Shown piece after piece: positions 14,542 through 58,337 of a stretch of 64,000 nucleotides of DNA. Source of the DNA: Pseudolabrys sp. (GTDB taxonomy: Bacteria > Pseudomonadota > Alphaproteobacteria > Rhizobiales > Xanthobacteraceae); contig DASRLF010000020.1 of assembly GCA_035648555.1 (NCBI GenBank), forward strand, positions 2,606-66,605. Reading direction: 5' to 3'. The position numbers and the translations under genes were made by a program. Positions within the stretch are counted from its first letter, which is position 1. Every line of letters starts with the position of its first letter. The notes under the pieces are model-generated. The model saw only the letters and a list, made by a program, of their open reading frames with translations, was not told where the DNA came from and made no database searches.

Positions 14542-15752
<1,211 letters not shown>

Positions 15753-55832: not shown

Positions 55833-55959
55833 GGCGATCTCCTCGGAATTTCTTGGCGGGCATTATAGCGCGGCCTGTAGCTGGCTAGCCAACGCTCCGC
55901 TCGCCCTATTCTTTGCGGCGGGGGTACGCCGTATTCTTCCCGCCTTCACGGGGACAAGC

Positions 55960-56347
55960 TTTTCCCCTCGCATAAAGCGAGGGCGTGGAGCGCCAAGCGG
56001 CGCACCAGTCTTCCGTCTAGCCGCATCCTCTTTGAAGGATGCGGGCGCCTCTCGGCGCTCCACAGCGGCGTTTTCCTTCCGGCGCCGGGCCGCGCTTTCG
56101 GGGTCCGTTTCGCCTTGCCGTTGGCTCTGAGTTGCGATGCCTTACGGGTCAATCGCGCCTTTCGAGCTTCGGGCAAGCCTCAACGGCCCGCCATCAGCCA
56201 GCTCCTGGCAGGGACCCATAGTGGTCCCGGGCGGAGCCCTGGCGCTGCCCGGATGCGGGGGGGTACGTTTCGTCCCCTGCCCGCAGGCGCCGCACTCTGC
56301 TCCATCTCCGAAACGTCTCGCGAAGACGCCCCCAATGAGCAAAGCTC
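55960..56347 (-). ncRNA. Candidate large structured non-coding RNA or structured interspersed element (~390 nt)
   Basis: Continuous nested helices and GNRA loops on the minus strand; G.U pairs valid only on the minus strand; upstream TTGACT-N17-TATATT promoter; no credible ORF. Confidence 0.55.
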
Positions 56348-56351
56348 TTGG

Positions 56352-56380
56352 AATATAATCCTACCATAGAAAAGAGTCAA
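56352..56380 (-). promoter_or_regulatory. Sigma70-like promoter driving the structured element
   Basis: Minus strand: TTGACT (56380-56375), 17-nt spacer, TATATT (56357-56352). Confidence 0.65.
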
Positions 56381-56391
56381 GCCGGATTTTT

Positions 56392-56548
56392 CTTCCCCTC
56401 TCCCCTTTTGGGGAGAGGGTGCCGAGCGAACGTCAGTGAGCGAGGCGGGTGAGGGGTTACGGACTATCGTGAGACTATGACCCATCACCCGGCTCGCGCT
56501 TCGCTATCGCTCCGCGCGATCCACCCTCTCCCTCAAGGGAGAGGGAAG
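56392..56548. repeat. REP doublet / miniature inverted-repeat element (CCCTCTCCC...GGGAGAGGG class)
   Basis: Left hairpin CCCTCTCCCC-TTTT-GGGGAGAGGG (56396-56419); right hairpin CCCTCTCCCT-CA-AGGGAGAGGG (56524-56545); inner GGGTGAGGGG/CCCATCACCC; outer CTTCCC/GGGAAG. Confidence 0.8.
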
Positions 56549-56590
56549 TAAGAAGAGCGCCTCACAAAACAGAATCTTCAGCCCACAAAC

Positions 56591-56643: not shown

Positions 56644-56928
56644 TCAGATCGCCATCTTGAGTTCCTTGGTGGCGCGAAACGCTACCTTGCGGCTGGCCTT
56701 GATCTGGATCGGCTCGCCGGTCGCGGGATTACGGCCCATGCGGGCGGCGCGCTTGCGCACTTGCAGGATGCCGAGCCCGGCGATCTTCACCCGCTCGCCC
56801 TTTTTCAGGTGCTTGGTGATCAGACCGACGAGGTCTTCGAGCATTTCCTTGCCCTGCTTTTTCGTGAGTGAATGCTGATCGGCCAGCGTGTCGGCCAGAT
56901 GCTTGGTGGTGATCGGCTTGTCTGCCAT
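56644..56928 (-). CDS. hup: HU family DNA-binding protein
   Basis: LKKGERVKIAGLG.LQVRKRAARMGRNPATGEPIQIKAS.KVAFRA; AGGAG RBS. Confidence 0.95.
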   Translation of the reverse strand: MADKPITTKHLADTLADQHSLTKKQGKEMLEDLVGLITKHLKKGERVKIAGLGILQVRKRAARMGRNPATGEPIQIKASRKVAFRATKELKMAI

Positions 56929-57049
56929 GACGTAGCTCCTGTTGCGCACCATGCGCCGTTGAATCAGCCCTATGAGATTCGCAGCCATCGGGAAAGGGCG
57001 AATACGCATAAAAACACAGAAAGTCGGGCTTTTTTGCAGTGCGGTGGGG

Positions 57050-58260: not shown

Positions 58261-58337
58261 GCGCCCGTAGCTCAGCTGGATAGAGCGTTGCCCTCCGAAG
58301 GCAAAGGTCGGACGTTCGAATCGTCTCGGGCGCGCCA
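58261..58337 (+). tRNA. tRNA-Arg (anticodon CCG)
   Basis: Acceptor GCGCCCG/CGGGCGC, D arm with GGA, anticodon stem TTGCC/GGCAA with loop CTCCGAA, T loop TTCGAAT, encoded CCA. Confidence 0.98.

Follow-up and report, generated by a model that had tools for sequence, protein, structure and literature searches.

The stretch of Pseudolabrys sp. DNA analysed here (contig DASRLF010000020.1; 64,000 nucleotides (nt), hereafter the window, whose coordinates are used throughout) carries on its minus strand, ahead of a gcdH-like acyl-CoA dehydrogenase gene, a region that is probably the gene for a free-standing structured non-coding RNA of about 460 nt with its own sigma70-type promoter, not a leader of gcdH, and a member of an apparently undescribed multi-copy family of the Rhizobiales. 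Comparison of the copies with one another shows the predicted fold, the strand, the placement of the promoter and the independence from neighbouring genes. A sequence-only reading of this DNA had proposed a large, structured and so far unannotated RNA with a promoter of its own. Strand-specific covariation, the constant spacing of a promoter ahead of most copies and the lack of a match in Rfam bear this out. The promoter and the RNA were placed as follows.

56352..56380, minus strand: sigma70-type promoter, with the -35 box TTGACT at 56380-56375, a 17-nt spacer and the -10 box TATATT at 56357-56352
55887..56345, minus strand: the RNA itself, about 460 nt, its start predicted about 7 nt after the -10 box and its 3' end set where family-wide similarity ends

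The promoter TTGACT-N17-TATATT, already proposed for the minus strand, was located at 56380..56352 as the one such site in the promoter scan, compared with 0.4 expected. Boundaries of the RNA were drawn from alignments of 15 and then 97 copies and both ends are predicted. Family-wide similarity starts at about 56345, which is the start predicted from the promoter, and stops at about 55887, roughly 70 nt past the 3' limit of the ~390-nt element originally suggested. Upstream sequence is unconserved among paralogs, yet 48 of 101 copies have an exact TTGAC at -33..-36 together with a -10-like box, an arrangement that none of the 269 windows taken as controls shows. Promoter boxes close to consensus are present in many of the other copies, and across the promoter-bearing copies the distance from promoter to first conserved helix is fixed. 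A second class of upstream element occupies positions -70..-1 in 28 of the 101 copies (L025, L027, L049, L100, L103, L116 and others) and consists of an A-rich run, AACTTATCCCCGC, a hairpin varying by compensatory changes and (C/T)TTATnATG about 7 nt before the first helix, P1. This element could belong to the RNA as a 5' extension or represent an unknown kind of promoter.

The 401 nt following the promoter fold at -217.6 kcal/mol compared with -178.2 +/- 6.5 kcal/mol for shuffled sequence (z = -6.0; opposite, plus strand z = -5.1), and all of the complementary segments listed when the region was first called highly structured exist in the sequence. Covariation was counted over 76 copies for the 5' domain and 57 for the 3' domain, the structure itself being derived from those alignments. 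In the 5' domain 94.2% of cells are paired, compared with 44-54% when the partners are slid, and there are 275 double changes against 79 +/- 11 in shuffled controls, with 0 of 500 shuffles as high. The corresponding figures for the 3' domain are 90.4% of cells paired (36-50% in slid controls) and 202 double changes against 74 shuffled. Covariation among homologs is thus strong, unlike what was to be expected of a decayed palindrome or a miniature inverted-repeat transposable element (MITE), the possibility originally set against an RNA. G.U pairs are abundant, P2 alone showing GU73, UG42 and GU30, which identifies the minus strand as the RNA strand.

Our comparison shows a predicted architecture in which helices P1-P5 are followed by a central arm that is dispensable, by P7, by a four-way junction with a GNRA cap (P8), by P9 and by a 3' H-type pseudoknot at P10. 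About 12 helices are backed by covariation, in addition to the junction and the pseudoknot. The parts are, from 5' to 3':

56295..56344, minus strand: P1, CUUUGCUC (56344-56337) with GAGCAGAG (56302-56295), enclosing P2
56311..56331, minus strand: P2 hairpin, GGGCGUC/GACGUUU with three G.U pairs (GGGGCGUC/GACGUUUC) and a 7-nt loop with UCGCGA at 56323-56318
56241..56293, minus strand: P3, an extended irregular hairpin GCGGCGCC...GGCAGCGCC whose tip varies
56211..56228, minus strand: P4 hairpin GGGACC-ACUAUG-GGUCCC
56197..56209, minus strand: P5 hairpin GCCAG-GAG-CUGGC, middle pair GC43/CG27
56100..56190, minus strand: variable central arm holding a GUAA-capped hairpin
56066..56087, minus strand: P7 hairpin CGGCG...CGCCG, with the invariant GAAAGCGCGGCCCGGC just before it
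55985..56063, minus strand: P8 four-way junction closed by GUGGA/UCCAC, with GCGCC-GAGA-GGCGC, the variable hairpin CCGCAUCCU/AGGAUGCGG and GCGCC-GCUU-GGCGC
55965..55983, minus strand: P9 hairpin CCCUCGC-UUUAU-GCGAGGG
55938..55955, minus strand: optional inserted hairpin GUCCCCGUGAAGGCGGGA, in some copies only
55904..55930, minus strand: P10 hairpin GGCG-UACCCC-CGCC, linker CAAAGAAUA and GGG back to the loop, forming the H-type pseudoknot
55887..55903, minus strand: 3' tail CGAGCGGAGCGUUGGCU, one of two family tail forms, the other being GAUGRCGCNUGNC

P1 joins the 5' end of the RNA to about nt 50, and 7 of its 9 pairs are altered on both sides (e.g. UA36/CG13/GC5 and UA36/CG18/UG19). The sequence-only reading had described a nested arm, the inner part of which (GGCGC/GCGCC > UGCGGG/CCCGCA > GGGG/CCCC) corresponds to P3 and covaries, while its outer helix GGAGC/GCUCC does not hold because GGAGC is the 3' strand of P1. 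Homologous copies support the P2 that it had described with strand-dependent G.U pairs, and covariation supports its GGGACC/GGUCCC helix, now P4. P3 is 97.8% paired with both-sided changes at 8 pairs, and 4 of 5 pairs in P4 are compensatory (GC55/CG15; GC54/AU17; GC45/CG9/AU8/UA4). A long-range helix GCCGUUG/CAACGGC drawn in the same reading is unconserved, relatives having a local hairpin GGGCC-loop-GGCUU. The central arm aligns poorly and has a weak consensus structure. It falls into length classes of about 20, 32, 55 and 93 nt and is swapped for a plain covarying hairpin in 21 copies, which makes it dispensable. Other optional hairpins are inserted after P1, within P9 and before P10.

In the 3' domain P7 is 98.9% paired with one-sided changes only. 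The closing pairs of P8 covary (AU38/GC16, CG47/AU8), all 8 pairs of its variable hairpin are compensatory and its first arm is an invariant hairpin with a GAGA or GAAA loop, in support of the four-way junction as first drawn. Covariation cannot separate this junction from a single 10-base-pair (bp) helix, given the palindromic GGCGCC repeats, and the junction is preferred because the GAGA/GAAA loop then stays a GNRA loop. P9 is 74% paired, the alignment being noisy there, and has both-sided changes at 5 pairs; it was predicted correctly as a hairpin and wrongly as the final element, since a terminal hairpin, a pseudoknot and a tail follow. The hairpin GUCCCCGUGAAGGCGGGA inserted between P9 and P10 is of the same kind as the REP-like hairpins dispersed across these genomes. 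P10 has stem variants GC25/CG18/UG8. The pseudoknot pairs the P10 loop with the four nt after the linker CAAAGAAUA and covaries as CCCG:CGGG, CCCC:GGGG, UCCC:GGGA and GCCC:GGGC, with pair counts of GC36/CG17 in the 3'-domain alignment of 57 copies and GC58/CG34 across 97 copies. The 3' tail GGCGGAGC is complementary to the invariant 5'-domain segment GCUCCGCC at 13 of 16 nt in this copy, but a long-range pairing between the two was set aside because variants on the 5' side are uncompensated and because the tail also occurs in stand-alone modules. A protein-coding reading was rejected, given the lack of a Pfam match for any of 8 open reading frames (ORFs) on both strands of the region and given indels of 1-2 nt between RNA copies; the absence of a credible ORF had been noted from the outset.

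Of 140 distinct copies, 131 have a palindromic hexamer in the P2 loop, among them members of further genera and of families elsewhere in the order. At least seven forms are found: UCAUGA (62 copies), UCUAGA (31), UCGCGA (15, including this copy at 56323-56318), UCCGGA (13), CUCGAG (4), CUGCAG (3) and GUCGAC (1). All four possible UCNNGA palindromes thus occur, and most of the 9 copies without a perfect palindromic hexamer are one substitution short. As adjacent nucleotides are unable to pair within one hairpin loop, the palindrome pattern points to pairing between two molecules and suggests that the RNA may pair with a second copy of itself through a symmetric P2 kissing loop. In OLE (loop L9.3) and GOLLD (loop L21a) loop nucleotides that switch between palindromes form such a symmetric intermolecular kissing loop, in both cases inferred from adjacent-nucleotide palindrome covariation and then confirmed by cryo-electron microscopy (PMC12286853). 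The P2 region has an alternative pairing, which we term helix X.

56304..56327, minus strand: helix X, GUCUUC (56327-56322) with GGAGAU (56309-56304)

In helix X the segment preceding the P1 3' strand pairs with the 3' portion of the 5' strand of P2 and with the first loop nt. This helix shares nucleotides with the inner pairs of P2 and with one half of the palindrome, and it covaries (CG39/UA28/UG8, CG31/UA21/UG22). Only about 1 nt lies between the 3' strands of P2 and helix X, which was judged too short for the two to coexist as a classical pseudoknot. In our reading helix X is probably an alternative fold in which the proposed kissing loop is hidden; it could also arise between molecules, as a strand swap.

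A mechanism can be outlined in which two RNA molecules would join by symmetric kissing of the 6-nt P2-loop palindrome, different palindromes would act as pairing codes among paralogs, helix X would hide half of the P2 loop to give a monomer/dimer switch, and the assembled RNA would serve as a scaffold or a sequestering particle. Extended to whole genomes, this would amount to a new class of RNA-only quaternary assemblies, with up to about 20 paralogous ~400-nt RNAs per genome sorted into homodimers or particles by a palindrome code (UCAUGA, UCUAGA, UCGCGA, UCCGGA, CUGCAG, CUCGAG), by the helix-X switch and by promoter classes, at least two upstream element classes setting which particles form. 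We put this extension forward tentatively, as one that could well be wrong.

Copies of the RNA were gathered from seed loci found with a strict pattern, built from two invariant stretches and searched in public genomes; nhmmer then recovered 102 distinct full-length copies of 349-580 nt from public-genome loci. Among the strict-pattern matches listed, all come from soil metagenome-assembled genomes with Pseudolabrys, Undibacter, Methyloceanibacter, Hyphomicrobiales or Bradyrhizobiaceae labels. Besides the copy in the window, the assembly has a second full one, another that is interrupted by the end of a contig, and several 3' fragments. BLAST matched parts of the element in 18 of 24 congeneric genomes, frequently at the ends of contigs, and detected it in none of 16 other families of the order. 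A covariance model limited to the 5' domain (157 positions, with E-values that are rough owing to a short calibration) matched 105 of 201 genomes of the same family, representing 39 of 62 genera, with per-genome counts of at least 14 at the top end. In the order it matched 16 of 301 genomes, with matches in seven other families, one of them holding at least 9 copies at E about 1e-21, and none in a genus of large genomes (7-9 Mb). Outside the order, 1 genome among about 300 sampled from the class gave a match. Copies from other genera carry the 3' domain besides the 5' domain, as recovered by nhmmer.

A shorter related subfamily was seen in the genome that contains the window (G000; C8:4101-4400, C42:124700-125042 and C54:45354-45700; L229-L231), with a -10-like box GATTATATTCC, a UCAUGA-loop hairpin and a P7-P10 3' domain and without P3-P5. 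The 5'-domain model misses this subfamily, so that the superfamily exceeds the counts given above.

With respect to known RNAs, a search of the whole window against Rfam 15 at the gathering threshold returned only a tRNA at 58261-58334, the RNA region searched at E <= 10 gave only weak chance matches to microRNA and small RNA models, and 20 diverse family members gave 0 matches at the gathering threshold, so that membership of a known Rfam family, which would have spoken against the original proposal, was not found; the families covered include RNase P, tmRNA, SRP, 6S, group I and II introns, HEARO, OLE, ROOL, GOLLD, raiA and riboswitches. The full-text literature searched contained no description of the RNA family; absence there or from Rfam 15 is no proof of novelty.

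Several points count against an RNA gene with the properties set out above. Copies per genome within the genus range from 0 to 18: two full copies were counted in this genome, 15, 17 and 18 copies in high-quality congeners, and no copy at all in five congeners, among them genomes that are 98-99% complete. A range of 0-18 with zero in near-complete genomes implies that the RNA is dispensable, and a selfish repeat would look alike. Many copies are truncated or internally deleted, and the 3' module (hairpin, CAAAGAAUA, pseudoknot and tail; about 55 nt) also occurs by itself. The terminator scan showed no clear intrinsic or consensus terminator after this copy and none before gcdH, and transcription may therefore continue into gcdH. 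A shuffled 16-nt window has some palindromic hexamer 20% of the time, so that the palindrome argument is carried by how often the hexamer occurs (94%), by its constant position and by its switching from one form to another, and dimerisation is a prediction from the sequence.

The main rival is accordingly a selfish non-autonomous mobile cassette (MITE/BOX/REP-like) that spreads at the DNA level, with the hairpins serving mobility or riding as passengers and the RNA incidental, a reading to which we give a minor share of the probability. It draws on the copy numbers just given, on the many copies at contig ends and on the modular build with optional hairpins and a solitary 3' module. G010 has an empty site where this genome (G000) has its second copy and where G006 also carries one, the cassette from -35 box to tail being present or absent there as one unit; upstream of gcdH in G003 the copy is internally deleted to promoter plus 3' end; and similarity of close paralogs sets in exactly at the -35 box. 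To this extent the element behaves somewhat like a mobile repeat, in its copy-number variation and its insertion/deletion polymorphism. In the one occupied/empty pair aligned (G000/G006 versus G010) the flanks are only ~71% identical, too divergent for a target duplication to be recognised, and both cassette ends carry a TTGNC-like motif. Against a cassette, no terminal inverted repeats link the two element ends. The TnpB domain PF07282 exceeds the cut-off in 0 of 25 genomes of the genus compared with 8 of 14 control genomes, no Y1/RAYT transposase (PF01797) occurs in RNA-rich genomes of 11-18 copies (G002, G006, G009, G013), and plasmid, phage and viral collections gave no blastn or pattern match to the family. 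An origin from phages or plasmids was set aside on the last of these results, and TnpB guide RNAs and Y1/RAYT-mobilised elements were rejected since both protein families are missing from RNA-rich genomes. Some copies are syntenic across species. Paralogs of ~70% identity moreover keep compensatory pairs, G.U helices, GNRA loops, the pseudoknot and the promoter spacing, which argues for long-term selection on the RNA. An RNA gene and a selfish cassette are compatible readings and can both hold, as an RNA gene that multiplies.

The relation of the RNA to gcdH depends on two downstream features.

55867-55862, minus strand: TATAAT, the -10 box of gcdH
55832, minus strand: start of the acyl-CoA dehydrogenase gene (gcdH-like), 55 nt 3' of the RNA

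A cis-acting 5' leader (riboswitch-like or attenuator) controlling gcdH from 55 nt upstream, which the sequence-only reading had offered as its second option, is quite unlikely as the function of the family. In its favour, no terminator separates gcdH from the RNA, the copy ahead of gcdH is shared, as an ortholog, by at least five species of the genus (G000, G002, G006, G009, G013), and the RNA tail offers a -35-like TTGGCT 19 nt upstream of the gcdH -10 box. Set against this, the nearest downstream gene is co-directional at 44 copies and convergent at 45, and clustering of flanking ORFs at 102 loci found no recurrent protein family, the best cluster covering 8 of the 102. The RNA is therefore not tied to a particular neighbouring gene, and a partner gene in cis was likewise not obtained from this clustering. 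Furthermore gcdH carries a -10 box of its own, in G007 the gene is preceded by a promoter and the RNA is missing, and in G003 most of the RNA is lost. Given the missing terminator and the TTGGCT of the tail, the free-standing RNA may at this locus also influence gcdH transcription, as a local side effect and not as the function of the family. Judging from the sequence, gcdH seems to take its -35 promoter box from the element (55862-55895). The same arrangement of TTGGCT and gcdH TATAAT is present in the G013 ortholog and retained in the G003 remnant.

A guide or template RNA for a trans-acting mobile-element or defence protein (TnpB/IscB omega RNA, retron/DRT-type) would suit a multi-copy, structured RNA whose sequence diverges past a conserved 3' pseudoknot and is hardly credible, as no copy lies beside a conserved ORF, the genus lacks the TnpB domain that control genomes have, neither HEARO nor any other Rfam model matches, and the post-scaffold sequence takes two conserved forms in place of free 'guide' sequence.

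The RNA family resembles OLE, ROOL and GOLLD (Kretsch et al. 2025, PMC12286853) in being several hundred nt long and non-coding with many helices, GNRA loops and pseudoknots, and shares with OLE and GOLLD a hairpin loop with palindrome-switching nucleotides, assembly being predicted here from the sequence. It differs in having no sequence or structure homology to them by Rfam, in its diverged paralogs, each under its own promoter and as many as 18 or more per genome against one or few copies, and in its occurrence in Rhizobiales and absence from phage collections, whereas OLE, ROOL and GOLLD are found in Firmicutes or phages. HEARO/omega RNA (IscB) and the TnpB guide RNAs are also multi-copy structured RNAs of 200-400 nt with pseudoknots; in contrast, the present family has no adjacent or genome-wide TnpB and no match to the HEARO model, and its promoter lies directly at the first helix with no guide segment.

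The dimerisation initiation site of human immunodeficiency virus type 1 (HIV-1) is a 6-nt palindromic kissing loop with variants carrying alternative palindromes, and a competing intramolecular pairing hides the loop. The P2 loop has the same self-complementary 6 nt in a small loop, alternative palindromes and a loop-hiding competitor; the context, a retroviral genome, is unrelated and the analogy is one of mechanism only. BOX, ERIC, Correia/NEMIS, REP/BIME and RIME are multi-copy intergenic modular repeats that vary in number between relatives, some with promoter elements. The RNA family is likewise multi-copy, intergenic, modular with optional parts and variable in number, but it is far larger (350-580 nt), lacks terminal inverted repeats and a cognate transposase, and has a complex strand-specific fold kept by compensatory changes across genera and families. 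The preQ1-I and SAM-II aptamers are H-type pseudoknot modules with an A-rich linker. The 3' module is built alike, from a hairpin of 4-5 bp with a 7-nt loop, followed by the linker CAAAGAAUA and by 4 nt that pair with the loop, but no Rfam model for either matches, it lies at the 3' end of the RNA instead of in a leader, and it is also found solitary downstream of genes.

Few large structured bacterial RNA classes remain unassigned, and OLE, ROOL, GOLLD, raiA and HEARO each opened new biology. Comparative support for the present family is very strong, its members abound in common soil Rhizobiales, and it shows a new combination of features, namely diverged promoter-bearing paralogs, 0-18 copies within a genus, a palindrome-switching loop and a reusable 3' pseudoknot module. 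The palindrome-switching loop predicts RNA-RNA assembly, which bears on questions of RNA self-assembly, and the family raises the question of how a structured RNA gene multiplies without a recognisable transposase. As 10-20 unannotated RNA genes per genome, its copies disrupt assemblies and escape current annotation pipelines.

On the minus strand the order is HU-family gene, terminator, ~160-nt palindrome, RNA promoter, RNA and gcdH. The remaining features of the surroundings are:

56644-57009, minus strand: HU-family DNA-binding gene, the 5' neighbour of the RNA locus
56621-56592, minus strand: intrinsic terminator closing the HU-family gene
56389-56550: imperfect palindrome of about 160 nt between that terminator and the RNA promoter
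58261-58334: tRNA gene (Rfam tRNA model, 65.9 bits), about 1.9 kb upstream of the RNA and not adjacent to it

The palindrome holds CCCTCTCCCC/GGGGAGAGGG hairpins, and its hairpin-model match is equally good on either strand. REP-like hairpins akin to it (TTATCCCTCCCC...GGGGAGGG, GTCGTCCCCGCGAAGGCGGGGAC, GTCATTCCGGGGCGCG...) flank many RNA copies in relatives, and some sit within the RNA copies themselves. At the 3' end some family copies have weak stem-plus-U tails or adjoining REP-like hairpins. In many copies (L005, L086, L102, L145, L169, L170 and others) a motif GCTGTTTGA(C/A)AAT(T/C)GAATC, which includes a perfect TTGACA, stands just 3' of the tail, directly after the RNA or after an inserted hairpin; the genome analysed here has 1 chance-like match to it, within apparent coding sequence. 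This genome (G000) has 11 of the 3' modules, only 3 of them within full RNAs, and stand-alone modules at C26:13070-13124, C71:25181-25233 and C59:10632-10686 (L232-L234) lie shortly past the stop codons of protein genes, so the module may be a general 3'-end element. Near the second RNA copy a conserved palindromic box, ATAGTAAAGATACTATCTT, stands beside a divergent regulator gene that by eye is GntR-like (G000:C33 ~15530-15560, and orthologs), and this box is probably the operator of that regulator.

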